This document shows, piece by piece, positions 4,223 through 14,720 of a stretch of DNA of 16,747 bases (the first letter of the stretch is position 1; each line of letters starts with the position of its first letter). Source of the stretch: a virus (Duplodnaviria > Heunggongvirae > Uroviricota > Caudoviricetes). Under the pieces are notes generated by a model. It searched no databases and was not told the origin of the DNA. It saw only the letters and a program-made list of their open reading frames with translations. The stretch is from the IMG/VR virus record IMGVR_UViG_2703718841_000001. One strand, given 5' to 3'. The position numbers and the translations under genes are program-made.

Positions 4223-4414
4223 TTAAAGACCTGCCGGGATTTCGATATTATCCTGGTGAATAACTTTATCGACCGGGTAACAGTTACCGGGAATTTTCTG
4301 TTCGGTTGCTGCAGTCATACACTCCTGCATTGTCCTGTGAACACTGACTGCAATATCAACTGGCTCTCCGGAAACAAGAAAAACTGTCAGAACAAGCACA
4401 AATGCTGAATTCAT
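4223..4414 (-). CDS. Small signal-peptide (exported) hypothetical protein
   Basis: Preferred start ATG at 4414 ([18 protein letters not shown]…) with AAGGA 9 nt upstream. N-terminal hydrophobic signal-like segment; two Cys in the mature part. 63 aa. Confidence 0.5.
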
Positions 4415-4566
4415 TGTGCACATCCTTTTGGCATCAGACGTAAACGAGCCAGCATTGAAACAATGCATATTTTATTTAATAGCTCCCGTTCTTGTTTTCT
4501 CTTGTTAATGGCATCTTCAGTAAATACTGGGTTAACTGGACTGCCTGGGCCAATGACGTGCGCACA

Positions 4567-4782
4567 ATGCGGATGCTGGATGGCAGAAGCCACAGACAAA
4601 TTTGCGAAATGTTTGGTCGGGTTCAGCGAGATCCATTCTGGGTAAAAAACATCATGAGCCCGTCAAAGCTCCGCGAAAAATGGGACGAACTGGTCATCCG
4701 CCTGGGACGTTCACCTGTACAGCGTTGTGTTAATCATATTTCTGAACCGGATACAGAAATTCCGCCTGGTTTCAGAGGATAA
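4567..4782 (+). CDS. Hypothetical protein (start uncertain)
   Basis: Track ORF 4492..4782 starts at TTG; first in-frame ATG is 4567 (MRMLDGRSHRQICEMFG…). No convincing SD. Overlaps a second frame (4463..4645), so a frameshifted remnant is possible. Confidence 0.3.
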   Translation: MRMLDGRSHRQICEMFGRVQRDPFWVKNIMSPSKLREKWDELVIRLGRSPVQRCVNHISEPDTEIPPGFRG

Positions 4783-4822
4783 GTGTTGATTTCAGGTCAT
4801 GAGGTAATTTTAAGGGGGACTT

Positions 4823-5245
4823 GTGGCAAAAGTTTTTACACAAGAAGAGCGGGAAAAAATTAAATGGCAGGTGGTGGAACTCGTGCGCCAGAGCGGCCGT
4901 GAGACGTTACGGCAACTGGAAGCTAAAACAGGTGCGACTAGATATCTGATGAGCGTTCTTGCCAGAGAGCTGGTAGCCAGTGGCGATGTATACAACTCCG
5001 GCTACGGGTTATTCCCCTCTGAACAGGCGCGTAAGGACTGGCAAAACGCCCGCAAAAAACTCTCGAGGGCAAAGGTGAAGAAACCTGCTGTGGTTGATCC
5101 GGACCTTATCTGGTCATCACCTGACGGAGAAATACGTCGCTACGACAGTCGCCTAAACATAATCTGTCGCGAGTGCCGGAAGAGCGAAGTTATGCAGCGC
5201 ATACTGGCTTTCTATCAGGGTAATTTTCAGGACGTGGCGCAGTGA
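4823..5245 (+). CDS. Hypothetical protein, possible winged-helix DNA-binding protein
   Basis: 140-codon ORF with GTG start and GGGGG SD about 4 nt upstream. Its stop TGA (5243-5245) overlaps the GTG start (5242) of the methyltransferase frame, indicating translational coupling. HTH-like segment RETLRQLEAKTGATRYLMSVLARELV. Confidence 0.6.
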   Translation: MAKVFTQEEREKIKWQVVELVRQSGRETLRQLEAKTGATRYLMSVLARELVASGDVYNSGYGLFPSEQARKDWQNARKKLSRAKVKKPAVVDPDLIWSSPDGEIRRYDSRLNIICRECRKSEVMQRILAFYQGNFQDVAQ

Positions 5246-5688
5246 GTGCACCGGCAACCATTCTTGATATGTGCTGTGGCAGCCGCATGTTCTGGTTCGA
5301 TAAGTCTGACGAACGGGCGATATTCAGCGATATCAGAAAAGAAGGATACACATTACGCAATGGGAGACGCTTGATTATCAGCCCTGACATTATCGCAGAT
5401 TTTCGTGCATTATCATTTGCAGACGCATCTTTTTCGATGGTTGTATTAGACCCTCCGCATCTTGAGAGTGTTGGTGATAACGCCTGGATGGGAAAGAAAT
5501 ATGGACGGCTGAATAAAGATGCCTGGCGTGATGATTCGCGACAGAGATTTAAAGAAGCCTTTCGGGTGTTGAGGCCGCACGGCGTTCTGATTTTTTAATG
5601 GAATGAAACGCAAATACCGGTAAGCCAGATTCTGGCACTGACAGACAGAAAACCTGTTATCTGTCAACGAACAGGGAAAAAACGATAA
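5242..5688 (+). pseudogene. SAM-dependent DNA methyltransferase, apparently interrupted by an in-frame TAA
   Basis: N-terminal 118 codons (5242..5598) carry LDMCCGSRMFWFDK and VVLDPPHL (DPPY-like) motifs. Frame stops at TAA 5596-5598 after …RPHGVLIF, yet the same frame reads on coherently (WNETQIPVSQILALTDRKPVICQRTGKKR) to TAA at 5686-5688. Confidence 0.55.
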
Positions 5689-6750
5689 AACCCACTGGAT
5701 TATTTTTATGAAAGAGGCATCCAGTGAGTAGATTCGTAAGGCTACAGATACGTATATCTGAATAATTAAATTCAGTTCTGTAAATAAAATTTAATCCTTA
5801 ACCGGATGGATTTCTGCACCCTCAGAACATCAGGAGGCCGCCCGAAAGGGCGGTAGTGAAATGCGAAAGTTCAAAATTATTATTGAAACGGGAATAGCTG
5901 GTGGAGATTTTGAGGATGTATTCGAAGTGGACGATGACGCAACACCTGAGGAAATTCATGACGGAGCATAAGAAATTTTCTTTAACTACTGCAATTACTC
6001 ATACCACGAAATAAAAGACGATGAGGAAGAACAAAGTGGCTGATTTTTGTTCAGCTAAATATAACATCAGTTTTGAAGAGCGGGATGAACTATTAATGGA
6101 CTATGGTGAGTTACGCGGTGGAAGTGCTGCTGATGTCGAATCCTAGCGTGATGACTATGAAGCGGGAAAAACTCCGGTCGAAGCATATTGTGATGAGTGG
6201 GGCGATGAATGAGCGAGATTAATTATCAGGAAGGGCATGAAACGGCGGGGCAAGCAAAACCAGTGGCATGGCGATATCGCTACGTGAAAAAAGGCGTTAC
6301 GGACTTTCAGGGGAAGTAGTGGTCTGGTGACTGGAAATATGTACCGAAAAAAGAGGATTGTAACGACAGGCCGAACTATCAAATTCAGGCCTTATTCACT
6401 GCCTCACCAGTCCCAGTTACATCAGAAGAACTGGTTAAAGCTGTGCACTTTTATGAACAACTAAAACGCGAAAATCCACCAACATCCGGCAACTAGATTA
6501 ATGGATTAACTATGTCGGTTAAACGACCAGCCAACTGAAAAAGCGGAAACCTGATTACAGGTTGCCAGATAAGGCAATGAGCTACCTGGCGCGGAACGGA
6601 CTGATAAGTATGGGGAATGTTTTACGATGAACCTTTAGACTAAAGAGTTTGTAACGCTATGTAAGTGATTTTTTCTGGTTTAGATATTTATATGTCCGGC
6701 CAAATTGAGGTGTGTTTAAATGTAATTGCACATTGATTGTAGGAGGAATA

Positions 6751-6930
6751 ATGAAAAACGCATTGCAGTTTTTGTTTGTTGCGTTCTGGTTGTTCGCATC
6801 ATGTATGCCCATCATCTTCACAGCAAGGTATATGGAAAAAGTTGATGTTTTGATATTAATATTTGGATATATAAATGCCCTTTTTTTAGGGGTGTTCATG
6901 GCGGTCATGTGCATTGAATACTGGCGGTAA
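6751..6930 (+). CDS. Small hydrophobic membrane protein (59 aa, two predicted TM helices)
   Basis: ATG at 6751 preceded by consensus SD AGGAGG (6741-6746). Product MKNALQFLFVAFWLFASCMPIIF…VLILIFGYINALFLGVFMAVMCIEYWR. AT-rich with rare codons, suggesting foreign origin. Track ORF 6712..6930 uses an upstream alternative start. Confidence 0.5.
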   Translation: MKNALQFLFVAFWLFASCMPIIFTARYMEKVDVLILIFGYINALFLGVFMAVMCIEYWR

Positions 6931-7020
6931 ATACAGCGAACTCCATTGGTTTAGTTGGATATTTACTGTACTGGACAAAAACGGTTTGCGGGGAAATCTT
7001 AGTTAAGTAGAATGACTGCG

Positions 7021-7190
7021 GGTGCTTGAGGCTATCTGCCTCGGGCATGGACACCAACGGCAGATAGAGAAAAGCCCCAGTTAACATTACGCGTCCTGCA
7101 AGACGCTTAACATTAATCTGAGGCCAATTTCATGCTAGACACATGTAGGTTAGCCTCTTACGTGCCGAAAGGCACGGAGAAGCAGGCTAT
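7021..7190 (+). other. hok/sok-type (type I toxin-antitoxin) leader remnant lacking the hok ORF
   Basis: 15-mer GGAGAAGCAGGCTAT at 7176-7190 is identical to 10490-10504, the SD/start region of hokD in this window. Upstream has hok-leader-like hairpins (7032-7040 with 7059-7067; GAAA-loop hairpin 7161-7176) and a mok-like frame from ATG 7132 to TAA 7207-7209. No Hok-like ORF follows. Confidence 0.5.
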
Positions 7191-8700
7191 TGTTAACACC
7201 AAGCTGTAATGTCCCCTTTGAACCATTCTAAAATGTCCCCAGACAATTCTCTGGGGGATTTTTCATGATCAAAGAGACTGTTACGATGAGTCATAAGGAA
7301 CTCCACCGACTTCAGATTATTCAGGAACAAGCTGCGGCACGCATTGGCATTTCTATTCGGCAGGTTAAACGTCTGGTGCAACGGTATAGAAATGAAGGGC
7401 CTTCTGGTCTGGTTTCCCACCGACGTGGAAAGCGTCCTAATAATTCCTTTTCTACTGAATTCAGAGCAACAGTAATTTCACTCCTCAAAGGCCGTTACGC
7501 TGATTTTGGACCTACGTTTGCGTGCGAAAAATTGCGCGAGATACACGGTTTATCTTTATCCGTTGAAACTCTCAGAAAGTGGATGATAGAAGAGGGGTTA
7601 TGGCGTGAACGCCGTCGTAAAATTGCCCGTATATATCAACGCCGCATGCGACGACCATCTTACGGTGAACTGATCCAGATTGATGGCTCACCTCATGACT
7701 GGTTTGAAAATCGAGGCCCCAGATGTACACTGATCGTTTTCATTGATGATGCCACCAGTGCGTTGATGGCGTTGCGTTTTGTGCCTGCTGAAACAACCCG
7801 GGCTTACATGGAAACCCTCCGGGGTTACCTTAATGATCATGGCGTACCGCTCGCTCTCTACTCTGATAGACACAGTATATTCAGGGTAAATAACCCAGAG
7901 CGGGAAGGTGAGCTGACCCAGTTCACTCGTGCGATAAAGACACTGGGCATCGAGCCAATCCATGCCAACAGCCCGCAGGCAAAAGGGCGGGTAGAGCGCG
8001 CCAATCAGACACTACAGGACAGGCTGGTCAAAGAAATGCGGCTTCAGAATATCAGTGATATTGAAACAGCAAATGCATGGTTGCCGACCTTTATTGAAGC
8101 CTATAACAACCGGTTCGCTACGTCGCCTCGTACTACTGATAATGCTCATCTTGATGTGCACCATTCTGAAGAGGAACTGGGTTATATCTTCAGCCTACAG
8201 GCGAAGCGCGTTCTGTCTAAAAATCTCACTTTCCAGTACAAAAGCAGTGCGTTTCAGGTACGCAGTGAGGGCCGGGGATATCGACTTAGGCATTCGGTTG
8301 TTACTGTATGCGAGAACTTTGACGGTGAAATTAACGTTCTGTATGACGGGAAAGCGCTGGGCTGGGAAAAGTATGTTGATGGCCCGGAGCCTATACCACT
8401 GGATGATGAAAAGAGTGTCCATGAACGAGTGGATAATGCCCGTATTGATTTACGCTCAAAATACTATGTTAAACCTAAAGCTGACCATCCCTGGCTTACG
8501 CGCCGAACGCAAAGTCATCAGCAAGTTAAGCCCCCGAAGTTACCTAAAAAGAAGCCTGATCCCGATAAAAAAGATTGAAACCAAGATCGATTCGGTTGAG
8601 TGCATATCCATTCATAGGGTAGATTCTTAAGTCGCGTTTCTGGTGTTCATTTTCGGGTGGTTTGTTACTTGTTTTACCGGGGATATGCCAGAAACGCGCT
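7191..8700 (+). mobile_element. Insertion sequence carrying the transposase (ends not resolved; coordinates approximate)
   Basis: Left boundary placed at the point where the hok leader homology breaks (7190/7191). Right boundary is a guess; no clean terminal inverted repeats or target-site duplication could be found by eye. Confidence 0.3.
7265..8578 (+). CDS. DDE transposase with N-terminal HTH and integrase-core (rve) domain
   Basis: 437-codon ORF. N-terminal HTH (ARIGISIRQVKRLVQRY), rve-like core (IQIDGSPHDWFE…LYSDRHSIF…QAKGRVERANQTLQ), basic C-terminal tail. Family not resolved (IS481-like or ISNCY/IS1202-like). GGGGGA SD lies in a hairpin just upstream. Confidence 0.85.
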   Translation: MIKETVTMSHKELHRLQIIQEQAAARIGISIRQVKRLVQRYRNEGPSGLVSHRRGKRPNNSFSTEFRATVISLLKGRYADFGPTFACEKLREIHGLSLSVETLRKWMIEEGLWRERRRKIARIYQRRMRRPSYGELIQIDGSPHDWFENRGPRCTLIVFIDDATSALMALRFVPAETTRAYMETLRGYLNDHGVPLALYSDRHSIFRVNNPEREGELTQFTRAIKTLGIEPIHANSPQAKGRVERANQTLQDRLVKEMRLQNISDIETANAWLPTFIEAYNNRFATSPRTTDNAHLDVHHSEEELGYIFSLQAKRVLSKNLTFQYKSSAFQVRSEGRGYRLRHSVVTVCENFDGEINVLYDGKALGWEKYVDGPEPIPLDDEKSVHERVDNARIDLRSKYYVKPKADHPWLTRRTQSHQQVKPPKLPKKKPDPDKKD

Positions 8701-8911
8701 GAGTCAGTCTGGGCGGTGCGCGTAATGAGGCGTTATGGTAAATAGCCTATGCTAATGTCCGCTAAGAGCAAGAAGCGGAAGTTGGCAGTTTTGTGGACTG
8801 TCCCCACAAAAGTGACTACAGAAATAGTTGCAATTCATAATTGATCATGGGTTGTCAGTTAAACTCGTGGCGATTTAAATAGACTAATTGGGAGTGCGTC
8901 CATTACTTATA

Positions 8912-8961
8912 TCTTGTAATGTTAACTATCAGAAATTCTTGTAATGTTAACTATCAGAAAT
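8912..8961. repeat. Perfect tandem direct repeat, 2 x 25 bp (TCTTGTAATGTTAACTATCAGAAAT)
   Basis: Unit at 8912-8936 is repeated exactly at 8937-8961. Contains palindromic GTTAAC. A 12-bp inverted copy (AGTTAACATTAC) occurs at 7079-7090. Confidence 0.95.
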
Positions 8962-9039
8962 GATACAAAGATAATATGTCTTTAAAGAAAAGGCTGATGG
9001 CGAAAAGTGGCCCGATGAGGGCCACAATACGGCTGTCAC

Positions 9040-9372
9040 TTAGACGTAAATATCAATGGTGCCAGCGGTATTTGTATCGTCTTTTTTCTCTTCTTTTTTA
9101 TCAGGCTGAACTGTCGCGTCTTCATTCTTTTTCTCTGCCTGCTGCCTTAACAACTGCTCCAGTTGAGCCCAGAGGCTTTCAATTTGCTTCTGTACCAATG
9201 CAGCCATTTCTTTTTTCTGCTGTGTCGTCATCCCCTCTTCCGATGAGATTTTCCCAAGCTTTTCAGTCAGCACCTGAATTTGTCTTGTGATTTTGGCTAT
9301 TTCTGATGTTCCTTCCGGGGCGGAGTTGTTTGAAATAACGGTTGAGGTATTTCCCTGAATTGTGACAGACAT
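9040..9372 (-). CDS. flxA: FlxA-like protein (flagellar-regulon member of Qin prophage)
   Basis: 110-codon ORF; coiled-coil, Lys/Glu-rich product matching FlxA as I recall it. AAGGAG SD upstream of ATG (9372). Sigma-28 promoter immediately upstream. Confidence 0.85.
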   Translation of the reverse strand: MSVTIQGNTSTVISNNSAPEGTSEIAKITRQIQVLTEKLGKISSEEGMTTQQKKEMAALVQKQIESLWAQLEQLLRQQAEKKNEDATVQPDKKEEKKDDTNTAGTIDIYV

Positions 9373-9395
9373 AGATTTCTCCTTTTAAAAAAGCA

Positions 9396-9422
9396 CTATC
9401 GGCATGCACAAAAAAATCTTTA
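9396..9422 (-). promoter_or_regulatory. Sigma-28 (FliA) promoter for flxA
   Basis: On the minus strand: TAAAGATT (9415-9422), 11-nt spacer, GCCGATAG (9396-9403). Consensus is TAAAGTTT-N11-GCCGATAA. Lies about 25 nt upstream of the flxA start. Confidence 0.75.
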
Positions 9423-9574
9423 ATCGTATTTCTTGTGTCATTAATTGTTTGATGTTCAGATTGTTTTCCTCGCGGGCTGGCGCGCCTCAGAAAGTAAAGC
9501 TTGTTGACAGGGGTAAACGTTCGGCAATAATTTTCTGCCGCATGCGGGTGTTGCATAAAACGTGTTACGTTCCT

Positions 9575-9880
9575 TTATCGACAGGTCAGGTCACCGCTCA
9601 CCCGCCGACGAGAAAGCAACACTGACATGCTAAAGCAAAAAATAGATGAATAAGTTGAGTTGTGCATATGTAGCCTGACCGTCACAAAGTATATGGTGTC
9701 TGTACCAGTAAGATGATGACCGGACTCTTTAAAAACGAGCTGACCTGCACAATACAGGATGGACTTAGCAATGGCTGCTCCTGGCACAAAGCGGACAGTG
9801 ATCACCGTTCTTACGACTACTTTCTGACTTCCTTCGTGACTTGCCCTAAGCATGTTGTAGTGCGATACTTGTAATGACAT
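9575..9880 (-). CDS. ydfV: Hypothetical ORF, ydfV-like by length and position (doubtful gene)
   Basis: 101-codon ORF between flxA and relB, matching the length and position of ydfV in Qin as I recall it. Its start codon lies inside the relBE operator; no SD. Coding status doubtful. Confidence 0.25.
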   Translation of the reverse strand: MSLQVSHYNMLRASHEGSQKVVVRTVITVRFVPGAAIAKSILYCAGQLVFKESGHHLTGTDTIYFVTVRLHMHNSTYSSIFCFSMSVLLSRRRVSGDLTCR

Positions 9881-9893
9881 TTGTAATTACAAG
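9868..9893 (+). promoter_or_regulatory. relBE operator/promoter region (relO-like inverted repeat)
   Basis: CTTGTAATGACATTTGTAATTACAAG, an inverted repeat around TTGTAAT, directly upstream of the relB SD (GAGGTG) and ATG at 9905. Confidence 0.7.
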
Positions 9894-9904
9894 AGGTGTA
9901 AGAC

Positions 9905-10144
9905 ATGGGTAGCATTAACCTGCGTATTGACGATGAACTTAAAGCGCGTTCTTACGCCGCGCTTGAAAAAATGGGTGTAACTCCTTCTGAAGCGCTTCGT
10001 CTCATGCTCGAGTATATCGCTGACAATGAACGCTTGCCGTTCAAACAGACACTCCTGAGTGATGAAGATGCTGAACTTGTGGAGATAGTGAAAGAACGGC
10101 TTCGTAATCCTAAGCCAGTACGTGTGACGCTGGATGAACTCTGA
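9905..10144 (+). CDS. relB: RelB antitoxin (type II TA)
   Basis: 79-codon ORF, MGSINLRIDDELKARSYAALEKMGVTPSEALRLMLEYI…; stop overlaps relE start (TGATG). Confidence 0.92.
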   Translation: MGSINLRIDDELKARSYAALEKMGVTPSEALRLMLEYIADNERLPFKQTLLSDEDAELVEIVKERLRNPKPVRVTLDEL

Positions 10145-10431
10145 TGGCGTATTTTCTGGATTTTGACGAGCGGGCACTAAAGGAATGGCGAAAGCTGGGC
10201 TCGACGGTACGTGAACAGTTGAAAAAGAAGCTGGTTGAAGTACTTGAGTCACCCCGGATTGAAGCAAACAAGCTCCGTGGTATGCCTGATTGTTACAAGA
10301 TTAAGCTCCGGTCTTCAGGCTATCGCCTTGTATACCAGGTTATAGACGAGAAAGTTGTCGTTTTCGTGATTTCTGTTGGGAAAAGAGAACGCTCGGAAGT
10401 ATATAGCGAGGCGGTCAAACGCATTCTCTGA
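10144..10431 (+). CDS. relE: RelE toxin (ribosome-dependent mRNA interferase, type II TA)
   Basis: 95-codon ORF, MAYFLDFDERALKEWRKLGSTVREQLKKKL…; overlaps relB stop by 1 nt. Confidence 0.92.
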   Translation: MAYFLDFDERALKEWRKLGSTVREQLKKKLVEVLESPRIEANKLRGMPDCYKIKLRSSGYRLVYQVIDEKVVVFVISVGKRERSEVYSEAVKRIL

Positions 10432-10502
10432 ACCAAAGCATGACATCTCTGTTTCGCACCGAAGGTGACACTTCTGCTTTGCGTTGACAGGAGAAGCAGG
10501 CT

Positions 10503-10658
10503 ATGAAGCAGCAAAAGGCGATGTTAATCGCCCTGATCGTCATCTGTTTAACCGTCATAGTGACGGCACTGGTAACGAGGAAAGACCTCTGCGAGGTACG
10601 AATCCGAACCGGCCAGACGGAGGTCGCTGTCTTCACAGCTTACGAACCTGAGGAGTAA
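10503..10658 (+). CDS. hokD: Hok-family type I toxin (HokD/RelF)
   Basis: Found by direct reading; below the ORF-track length cutoff. ATG 10503, product MKQQKAMLIALIVICLTVIVTALVTRKDLCEVRIRTGQTEVAVFTAYEPEE (51 aa), stop 10656-10658. GGAGAAG SD upstream. Confidence 0.85.
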   Translation: MKQQKAMLIALIVICLTVIVTALVTRKDLCEVRIRTGQTEVAVFTAYEPEE

Positions 10659-10726
10659 GAGACCCGGCGGGGGAGAAATCCCTCGCCACCTCTGATGTGG
10701 CAGGCATCCTCAACGCACCCGCACTT

Positions 10727-10753
10727 AACCCGCTTCGGCGGGTTTTTGTTTTT
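10727..10753 (+). terminator. Rho-independent terminator downstream of hokD
   Basis: Stem CCCGC / GCGGG with TTCG loop (10729-10742), followed by TTTTTGTTTTT. Confidence 0.75.
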
Positions 10754-13922: not shown

Positions 13923-14222
13923 AAAAATTCCTTAATACTGATAACTTGGCGCACTATACACACGTTCCTGAAGAAAGCTATAGTTTTTTGATGGGGTTGA
14001 AGATGGCTGGATGTCTAAAATAAACATTGCTTCATATGTTCAACTATGCGTTAATGATTGCGTCGGTTTGAAGAACAGACGATATACGAAGTAGTTTACT
14101 AAAGCAGTTCTCATTTCAGGTGTTATTCACTTATTCCTTCTTTGAGTCTCTCCAATTAAGTACGAAGTCGTTTCTGTTATGCAAACCATTTATGCCGAAA
14201 GGCTCAAGTTAAGGAATGTAGA

Positions 14223-14438
14223 ATGTCAAATAAAATGACTGGTTTAGTAAAATGGTTTAACGCTGATAAAGGTTTCGGCTTTATTTCTCCTGTTGATGGT
14301 AGTAAAGATGTGTTTGTGCATTTTTCTGCGATTCAGAATGATAATTATCGAACCTTATTTGAAGGTCAAAAGGTTACCTTCTCTATAGAGAGTGGTGCTA
14401 AAGGTCCTGCAGCAGCAAATGTCATCATTACTGATTAA
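14223..14438 (+). CDS. cspB: Cold-shock protein CspB
   Basis: 71-codon [41 protein letters not shown]…, with RNP motifs. Long 5' leader (13923-14222) shared with divergent cspF. Confidence 0.88.
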
Positions 14439-14720
14439 AATTCATCGCTCGTCTGTATACGATAACGAAGAAGGCTGATGCCTGAGTAGAGATACGGACA
14501 GAGTAGTGAATATTGGATCTCTTTAATAAAAAGTAAGGAGGTCCAATACATGAAACAATGGCTAGCATATTTGGCAAAATCTTAATCAGGAAAAGTATGC
14601 TAACCATTGTGGTGAAGTGCAGGTTTGCTGCATGAATAGTTTTACAGCAGAAGCTAACTGCTGGCATGGCAAAACAAAGTGCGTAAGTGGATGACTCCCA
14701 CAAAAAGCACCACAATCTCA

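Follow-up and report, generated by a model that had tools for sequence, protein, structure and literature searches.

A probable small membrane-protein gene co-inherited with hok/sok in lambdoid prophages of Escherichia coli and Shigella

Small membrane proteins are the class of genes that annotation misses most often, and an open reading frame (ORF) of 59 codons located next to a hok/sok locus raises the question of whether it is a gene at all and, if so, what its product might do. The ORF lies in a 16,747-nt stretch of viral DNA (IMG/VR record IMGVR_UViG_2703718841_000001; hereafter, the window), which represents a Qin-like lambdoid prophage of E. coli with the order int, xis, exo, ydfD, truncated dicB, replication-region genes, relBE-hokD, rem, ydfU, Q, cspB/F, and the essD lysis cassette. 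A previous inspection of the letters and their translations (the sequence-only reading) had singled out this ORF as an unannotated two-helix membrane protein with a consensus ribosome-binding site. We find that it is very probably a real, conserved membrane-protein gene that is co-inherited with hok. It is best described as a member of an unnamed small-protein family that is restricted to E. coli and Shigella and consists of two subfamilies, referred to here as A (which includes the window copy) and B. The features of the locus are listed in Table 1.

The ORF is present as claimed, in both sequence and translation. It runs on the plus strand from the ATG at position 6751 to the TAA at 6928-6930 and encodes the 59-aa product MKNALQFLFVAFWLFASCMPIIFTARYMEKVDVLILIFGYINALFLGVFMAVMCIEYWR. 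The Shine-Dalgarno (SD) motif described in the sequence-only reading is there as well, with a spacer of 4 nt (AATA) rather than the 5 nt given there, and it is the only textbook one, as the whole window contains no other AGGAGG followed by an ATG and an ORF of at least 50 aa. Its form varies, being AGGGGG in some subfamily A haplotypes and AGGGA in subfamily B. The rare codons pointed out in that reading were all found (three ATA, two TTA, and one AGG), along with CGG, GGA, and CCC. Likewise, the AT-rich island is real: the GC content is 0.34 over positions 6600-6900 versus 0.44 to 0.50 in the flanks, and the island around the ORF has 34 to 37% GC. Base composition differs among the three codon positions of the ORF (chi-square p = 0.015), and both flanks show no periodicity. 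The description of the gene as unannotated holds for the complete genomes in RefSeq/PGAP, where no feature lies under the match, whereas GenBank and UniRef carry the protein as “hypothetical protein” or “membrane protein.”

Table 1. Features at and around the 59-aa ORF (positions are those of the window)
Feature	Position	Strand	Remarks
Remnant of the 3'-terminal ~20 codons (..KAMSYLARNGLISMGNVLR*) of an upstream nin-region gene	6570..6630	+	Corresponds to the C-terminal end of the 328-aa L120 ORF
AT-rich 5' intergenic leader of the 59-aa gene	6631..6750	+	GC ~0.34; aligns to subfamily B only with indels
Antisense 85-aa ORF	6657..6914	-	Labeled “hypothetical protein” or “hornerin” in GenBank phage records; judged spurious
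Shine-Dalgarno sequence AGGAGG	6741..6746	+	AATA spacer, 4 nt to ATG
59-aa ORF	6751..6930	+	Subfamily A; predicted TM1 ~4-24, loop 25-31, TM2 ~32-55
T7 homopolymer within the ORF, followed by G4	6881..6887	+	Site of most frameshifts in database variants
Putative hok promoter	6986..7013	+	-35 TTGCGG, 16-nt spacer, -10 TAGAAT; inferred from the sequence and the Rfam start
hok mRNA leader, truncated mok, antisense sok	7020..7190	+	Ends at the hok SD/start codon
Left 15-bp target-site duplication GGAGAAGCAGGCTAT	7176..7190	.	Direct repeat
ISNCY-type transposon-like insertion, 3,299 bp	7191..10489	+	~30-bp imperfect terminal inverted repeats
Right 15-bp target-site duplication	10490..10504	.	Supplies the hokD SD and ATG
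hokD (relF)	10503..10658	+	Coding half of the hok locus located downstream of the 59-aa ORF where the cassette is uninterrupted

One distant full-length relative (P0039/P0044; E = 1.2e-8) was detected when 1.84e9 representative proteins were scanned with HMMER; its residues 1-59 align to residues 1-59 of the query. P0039 and P0044 are near-identical members of subfamily B, and the latter is the 59-aa protein MRKILMYLCISIWIVISCVPIILTSEYLTEASIMALMFGHANALCIGVFISIIYIECWR. In a pairwise BLASTP comparison, the A and B proteins show 41% identity and 71% positives without gaps (E = 2e-19). Their genes share the start, the stop, and the length at 59% nucleotide identity, which is distributed over codon positions 1, 2, and 3 as 58, 72, and 48%. 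With pN at 0.34 and pS at 0.72, the resulting pN/pS of 0.47 is the lowest of the six frames. Along the fixed diagonal of the ORF, every 30-nt window within it contains 16 to 20 identities; just before the ATG and ~25 nt past the stop, their number falls to the background level of 5 to 13. The flanks of A and B are homologous once gaps are allowed, with the DNA alignment starting at ~6615. The stretch from the ATG to ~25 nt past the stop is free of indels, as is characteristic of a maintained reading frame. The same comparison answers the question, raised in the sequence-only reading, of whether the ORF is a piece of a longer disrupted gene: it is not, as its sole distant homologue consists of the same 59 codons with the same start and stop.

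Members of both subfamilies are 59 aa long, align without gaps, and share a set of invariant residues; their genes lie directly upstream of a co-oriented hok locus, either in a lambdoid prophage or in the relic of one. When 5.8e9 proteins were searched with a profile of the family alignment (A1), no third subfamily was detected, and tblastn searches against phages and plasmids found A and B copies only. A word-indexed search of 5.8e9 proteins retrieved near-identical E. coli and Shigella sequences and many frameshifted or IS-truncated versions of them. Because there are only two subfamilies, both of them from E. coli and Shigella, the comparative evidence comes from one deep comparison. One locus (L087) that had been reported as a 53%-identical homologue proved to be a copy of the same sequence riddled with indels and was dismissed as uninformative.

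The family is common in E. coli. Subfamily A DNA is found in 1568 of the 5426 complete E. coli genomes (29%), in up to 3 copies per genome, and all these copies are at least 95% identical. Subfamily B is found in 1045 of the same genomes (19%), without annotation by PGAP. The carriers of the family include the uropathogenic strain CFT073, with a subfamily B copy at NC_004431.1:1651669-1651848 (+), as well as ATCC 8739, ATCC 25922, and Shigella, and subfamily A is also encoded in the sequenced phages PhiR42_1, vB_EcoS-640R1, and vB_EcoS-813R8. A 761-nt query from the window is 100% identical in strains PSJ-12 and 23CRST024. In K-12, neither A nor B is present at the Qin and Rac-end loci that were examined, so the family is probably beyond the reach of small-protein screens based on that strain. 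RefSeq contains no gene model for the family, and Pfam, NCBIfam, PHROGs, and PADLOC have no corresponding entry. Peptide strings of the 59-aa protein occur in no paper in the literature searched, and neither the paper on hokW-sokW (PMC8621323) nor a preprint on the Pas sRNA mentions such an ORF. A text search of a Ribo-seq preprint on CFT073 (10.64898/2026.09.28.754932) gave no hit for ttcA, uspF, or the coordinate of the B copy.

To assess variation within subfamily A, IMG/VR loci were collected by means of an exact match to a 37-nt pattern in the upstream DNA, a procedure that is blind to the ORF. These flank-selected loci replaced the first IMG/VR set, which was biased because its members had been picked by protein similarity. 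The 59-aa frame is kept in 115 of the 117 loci, which include one 45-aa allele, and the databases also contain frameshifted (P0019, P0022, P0024, and P0025) and IS-truncated alleles; with a divergence of only 0 to 5%, such intactness within E. coli is weak evidence when taken alone. In both subfamilies, no other segment of the locus is as low in diversity as the ORF. In subfamily A, nucleotide diversity (pi) is 0.012 in the ORF versus 0.09 upstream, 0.03 in positions 6931-7019, and 0.065 in the hok leader, with the flank values inflated by mosaic breakpoints. Nine B loci have a single segregating site in the ORF, compared to ~6.4 expected from the density in the flanks (Poisson P ~ 0.01). All 12 polymorphisms are nonsynonymous, 11 of them in A (A16V, M28I, V31I, I37M, Y40H, A43V, L44I, V48G, F49S, V52G, and M53T) and one in B (M6V), an excess that we estimate to have a probability of ~3% under neutrality. 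Such a set of changes is expected neither from simple purifying selection nor from decay; diversifying selection, constrained synonymous sites, or sequencing errors in a few of the singletons could account for it. The excess of amino acid changes could also mark a fast-evolving new exclusion or defense protein.

The sequence-only reading had treated the ORF as a survivor in a decayed region, and this part of it did not hold up. Together with hok/sok, which makes up the downstream half, the ORF forms a conserved ~0.9-kb block that inducible phages also carry. In Qin-like lambdoid phages and prophages of E. coli and Shigella, this block is situated in the nin region, where it is flanked by the replication genes on one side and Q on the other. 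The homology blocks that contain the ORF have their left edge at ~6540, 6470, or 6250 and their right edge at the hok terminator. Upstream neighbors vary (a 328-aa ORF in L120, an 85-aa ORF in L004), and the shared mosaic block begins, on its left, within the final ~20 codons of the gene upstream. In 23 loci, the segment shared with phage vB_EcoS-640R1 is limited to L004 positions 4794-5689 (~890 bp), that is, to the ORF and hok/sok. Downstream of the ORF, 75 of 120 loci encode an intact Hok of 51 aa.

In the window itself, the distance of 77 nt from the stop codon of the ORF to the -10 box of hok (TAGAAT, 7008-7013) had been given exactly, and the putative -35 box (TTGCGG, 6986-6991) is 55 nt from the stop. 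The promoter described previously as hok-like indeed belongs to a hok element, which is, more precisely, the 5' half of the hokD locus, cut off from the coding half. The Rfam sok/hok-leader family (RF01794) matches positions 7020-7191 with 104 bits (E = 3.9e-23), and homology to intact hok cassettes stops at 7190. The setting of subfamily B is a prophage relic in the Rac attachment region, with the order ttcA, integrase fragment, DUF1627 fragment, B, and uspF. There, too, the gene is followed by hok, in the form of a dead relic (L090 6235-6297, beside the integrase relic at the ttcA site) that is identical to hok codons ~22-42 at 48 of 62 nt, is devoid of the 5' half, and contains an in-frame stop. 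Therefore, the order of the ORF and hok is ancestral to both subfamilies. The 59-aa gene persists after the adjoining hok has been split (in A) or destroyed (in B). With its fixed place beside hok/sok and its survival in prophage relics where hok died, it is an inexpensive and clearly delimited candidate for a new membrane effector encoded by prophages.

The two hydrophobic helices noted in the sequence-only reading are supported by Kyte-Doolittle profiles, which peak (19-residue window) at 2.1 around residues ~5-25 and at 2.4 around residues ~33-52, with a charged loop between them. AlphaFold2, run with the family alignment, predicts helices at residues 2-24 and 31-58 connected by a loop at 25-30 (mean pLDDT 71). 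From these models, we infer that the 59-residue product is a helical hairpin in the inner membrane with an N-in/C-in topology. The N-terminal Lys/Arg residues (K2 or R2-K3) and the C-terminal R59 would probably be cytoplasmic, and the short loop would probably be periplasmic. The charges in the loop are R26, E29, K30, and D32 in A but only E26 and E30, making it acidic, in B. In alignment A1, the residues that are invariant in A and B are W13, S17, C18, P20, I21, I22, and T24 in the first half of the protein and F38, G39, N42, A43, E56, W58, and R59 in the second. Residues conserved inside the helices, small and polar ones in particular, and at the helix ends (W13, S17, C18, P20, T24, G39, N42, G47, E56, W58, and R59) suggest helix-helix packing. 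An Asn residue in the middle of the membrane drives the association of transmembrane (TM) helices, and the 59-aa protein may either self-associate or bind another membrane protein. It would be translated from its own strong SD, as the upstream gene of the ~0.9-kb block with hok/sok. A profile search of PDB found no match for the protein, and a Foldseek search against PDB produced nothing usable (best E = 7.8).

In searches against collections of known families, the protein matches neither Hok nor a holin nor any other family model, in keeping with the sequence-only reading. At E <= 1, hmmscan finds no Pfam family for the 59-aa protein, and NCBIfam gives none either; PADLOC-DB 2.0 has no family matching A or B at E <= 10, and PHROGs has no match for either of them. 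The only hit in the family searches with A and B, DUF4212, scored 13.9 bits against a cut-off of 30 and was discarded. Like Hok, the protein is small, hydrophobic, assigned to the inner membrane, and encoded in a lambdoid prophage, and its gene adjoins hok and is co-inherited with it. Hok, however, consists of a single TM helix and a periplasmic tail with a conserved Cys residue, whereas the 59-aa protein has two helices and no tail. It does not match the Hok/Gef profile (PF01848), there is no overlapping mok-like frame, and no sok-like RNA is found at the ORF (positions 6300-7019, E <= 1), the sok match starting only at 7020.

Class II holins, including pinholin S21, have two TM helices and a comparable size. 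S21 corresponds to the EssD protein of the same prophage, which already has the cassette essD-ydfR-rrrQ-rzpQ. Unlike the holins, the 59-aa protein is encoded outside the lysis cassette, ~8 kb from essD/rrrQ; it has no charged C-terminal tail (the C-terminus is ..IEYWR), no dual start, and no match in Pfam or PHROGs.

Among known small membrane toxins, the nearest in size and architecture would be GhoT (PF10753), the type V toxin of the GhoST system of E. coli, which has ~57 to 59 aa, almost all of them in two TM helices. The two proteins differ in that they show no sequence similarity and that the 59-aa gene is borne by a prophage beside hok. There is no match to the GhoT/OrtT profile and no GhoS-like neighbor, the neighbors being a gene relic and hok. 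Finally, superinfection-exclusion proteins of the kind of T4 Imm, HK97 gp15, and P22 SieA are short inner-membrane proteins of phages and prophages that are encoded in accessory positions and retained in lysogens. The architecture of the 59-aa protein and the retention of its gene in prophage relics are compatible with such a role; it has no homology to any model in PHROGs or PADLOC.

As for the role of the protein, the suggestions made in the sequence-only reading (toxin, exclusion, or abortive infection) are generic ones. An accessory (“moron”-type) function of advantage to the lysogen, for instance superinfection exclusion or a different membrane-level defense, appears to be the leading candidate, although we put it forward only tentatively. 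Exclusion or defense is favored here over a toxin or a partner of Hok because the gene remains intact and least diverse in decayed relics at two chromosomal sites and all of its changes alter the protein. A membrane-depolarizing toxin or a modulator of lysis seems unlikely, and a regulator of a host membrane protein would be unlikely to the same degree. That the protein has no function at all is improbable.

A somewhat better case than for the absence of function, though still a doubtful one, can be made for a protein-level partner of Hok, i.e., a modulator, immunity or gating factor, or co-toxin that would shape when Hok kills, so that the locus would be a three-component module. To our knowledge, hok/sok has been described only as a toxin with an antisense RNA, and this reading, if true, would add a protein component to the system. 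It draws support from the order of the ORF and hok, kept in two diverged subfamilies, from their location in one mosaic block, and from the nature of both products as small inner-membrane proteins. Still, B is intact, with 0 to 1 changes, next to a hok that is 5'-deleted and contains a stop, and A is intact where hok has been separated from its leader. An HMM search of six-frame translations of the hokA, hokB, hokC, and hokE loci, the Qin prophage, and the Rac end of K-12 revealed no trace or relic of the family. Moreover, the 761-nt query, which includes the hok leader, matches 9473 places versus 1629 for a query with the ORF, and most hok-like loci therefore probably lack the ORF. We prefer the exclusion or defense role also over this one, while keeping it provisional.

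It is very unlikely that the gene is a chance ORF in an AT-rich spacer that hitchhikes with hok/sok, in copies too young to have decayed. An ORF of this length is, by itself, unremarkable. Among 5000 dinucleotide shuffles of positions 6560-7000, 24% contain an ATG-initiated ORF of at least 59 aa, and T-rich sequences give hydrophobic peptides. In addition, all E. coli copies of A are close to each other (see above), there are no synonymous polymorphisms to set against the 12 nonsynonymous ones, and a promoter scan of the subfamily A locus found no consensus sigma-70 site upstream of the ORF. That scan is insensitive, because it also missed the known promoters of hok and sok; scans for promoters and terminators did not find a terminator of the gene's own either. 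In subfamily B, the scan produced only weak sites, in numbers no higher than in shuffles; an extended -10 element (TGATATAAT) read upstream of B was set aside, as it is not conserved in A. Against a chance origin, an ORF of at least 59 aa preceded by an SD of 4 to 5 matching bases occurs in just 0.9% of the same shuffles, one that also has two hydrophobic peaks in 0.4% (<0.4% for the combination of SD and two TM segments), and one preceded by AGGAGG in 0 of 5000. Also against it are the conservation of start, stop, length, and second codon positions in a relative as distant as B, the confinement of indels to the flanks in the A/B alignment, and the low diversity of the ORF at both loci.

Even less probable is that conservation acts on some element of the nucleotide sequence (for example, an RNA, antisense transcript, or DNA site) overlapping the ORF, and that the protein is incidental. 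In favor of such an element, synonymous sites vary as little as nonsynonymous ones within the subfamilies, with 0 synonymous changes, and several promoter-like sites are found on the minus strand in or near the B ORF, yet they are fewer than in shuffles. Between A and B, on the other hand, conservation is highest at second codon positions and lowest at third ones, as in a protein and unlike in an RNA. At E <= 1, Rfam detects only the start of the hok leader in positions 6300-7050 and nothing in 6300-7019. The predicted folds of 6640-6800 and 6900-7030 are no better than those of shuffles (the two z values are +0.5 and -0.6, in no set order), with the SD unpaired in the minimum free energy structure.

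That the antisense ORF of 85 aa is the true gene is barely credible. It is longer than the plus-strand one and was chosen by automatic annotation of PhiR42_1, vB_EcoS-640R1, and vB_EcoS-813R8, but premature stops make it 63, 79, or 85 aa long across A haplotypes, and its frame has 2 stops in B and a pN/pS of 0.90; these phage records annotate the wrong strand at the 59-aa gene.

Comparison of the window with an uninterrupted locus also bears on the origin of hokD. Positions 5426-5689 of L004 match window positions 10489-10753, the hokD region, at 98%. The insertion that separates this region from the hok leader has terminal inverted repeats that match, by our count, at 22 of 30 positions. It encodes an ISNCY-type transposase with HTH and rve_3 domains (ORF at 7265-8578), the last 49 residues of which correspond to the K-12 “YdfW,” and its cargo consists of flxA, ydfV, relB, and relE. 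The 15-bp sequence GGAGAAGCAGGCTAT that is repeated at its ends is present in a single copy in the empty site of L004. A transposon carrying relBE seems to have landed on the SD and start codon of hok and created the relB-relE-hokD operon, and such a split of the hok locus would explain why hokD has no sok and no mok. In K-12, a further deletion from dicC/ydfX to ydfW has removed the 59-aa gene together with the hok leader and sok.

The hok/sok locus downstream of the small 59-aa membrane protein gene is evidently split at its Shine-Dalgarno sequence and start codon by a 3.3-kb ISNCY-type transposon-like element. The element is flanked by a 15-bp target duplication, GGAGAAGCAGGCTAT, has imperfect terminal inverted repeats of ~30 bp, and carries a 437-aa transposase ORF, flxA, ydfV, relB, and relE (see the table). 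On this reading of the sequence, hokD (relF) is the coding half severed from the hok/sok locus, which would explain why it lies inside the relBE operon without sok or mok. A limited literature search found no report of a split of hok by a relBE-carrying element. The 49-aa “protein YdfW” of K-12 is in the same frame as the transposase ORF and makes up its C-terminus; PGAP labels the transposase “partial, missing C-terminus” and gives YdfW as a separate protein.

Features of the window and of related loci, with coordinates
Feature	Location	Strand	Remarks
ISNCY-type transposon-like element, 3.3 kb	window 7191-10489		within 7176-10504 including the duplicated target
Transposase ORF, 437 aa, ISNCY type	window 7265-8578	+	HTH_32, HTH_29, and rve_3 domains
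“Protein YdfW” segment	window 8429-8578	+	C-terminus of the 437-aa transposase ORF
hokD (relF)	window 10503-10658		putative coding half of the split hok locus
Antisense ORF, 85 aa	window 6657-6914	-	annotated in phage GenBank records
T7 run, then G4	window 6881-6893		inside the 59-aa ORF
Dead hok 3' fragment	L090 6235-6297		in-frame stop
Subfamily-B gene in CFT073	NC_004431.1:1651669-1651848		

A hok remnant also accompanies subfamily B, the 59-aa relative of the small ORF (subfamily A). The island between ttcA and uspF, found in ~19% of E. coli genomes, is a prophage relic in which an integrase and a DUF1627 gene survive as fragments, hok as a dead 3' fragment, and subfamily B as an intact gene; PGAP annotates neither the subfamily-B gene nor the hok relic.

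All 12 polymorphisms within the two subfamilies (window 6751-6930 and positions 6001-6180 of L090, a locus carrying subfamily B) are nonsynonymous, with no synonymous ones, even though in both loci the 59-aa ORF has less diversity than any other segment. Diversifying selection could lie behind this pattern, as could constrained synonymous sites or singleton errors. Several database variants of the subfamily-A ORF (P0019, P0022, P0024, and P0025, each with at most 24 member sequences) are frameshifted at the T7-G4 run, as is a 45-aa allele found in 1 of 117 IMG/VR loci; such frameshifts could represent either slippage-prone switching or assembly error.

On the opposite strand, the 85-aa ORF, named “hypothetical protein” or “hornerin” in phage records PV340562, ON470612, and ON470619, is not conserved, varying in length and containing stops in subfamily B, and its annotation looks like a mis-annotation.

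Between the methyltransferase gene and the small ORF (window 5861-6630) lie pseudogenes of repeated nin-region modules, namely a DUF7167 gene interrupted by an internal stop and a hypothetical gene carrying a frameshift. Their unbroken counterparts are found in two other loci carrying subfamily A (L004 4166-4771 and L120 2812-4569), and these intact genes matched no Pfam family. Farther upstream (window ~4411-4782), a truncated dicB forms a fusion with the C-terminal portion of a gene from the replication region. The immunity region dicA/dicC/ydfABC/dicF is deleted in the window and likewise in PSJ-12, and is present in ATCC 8739. A cspA-type thermoregulator 5' UTR (window 14062-14454, + strand; Rfam RF01766, 159 bits) precedes the prophage cspB.
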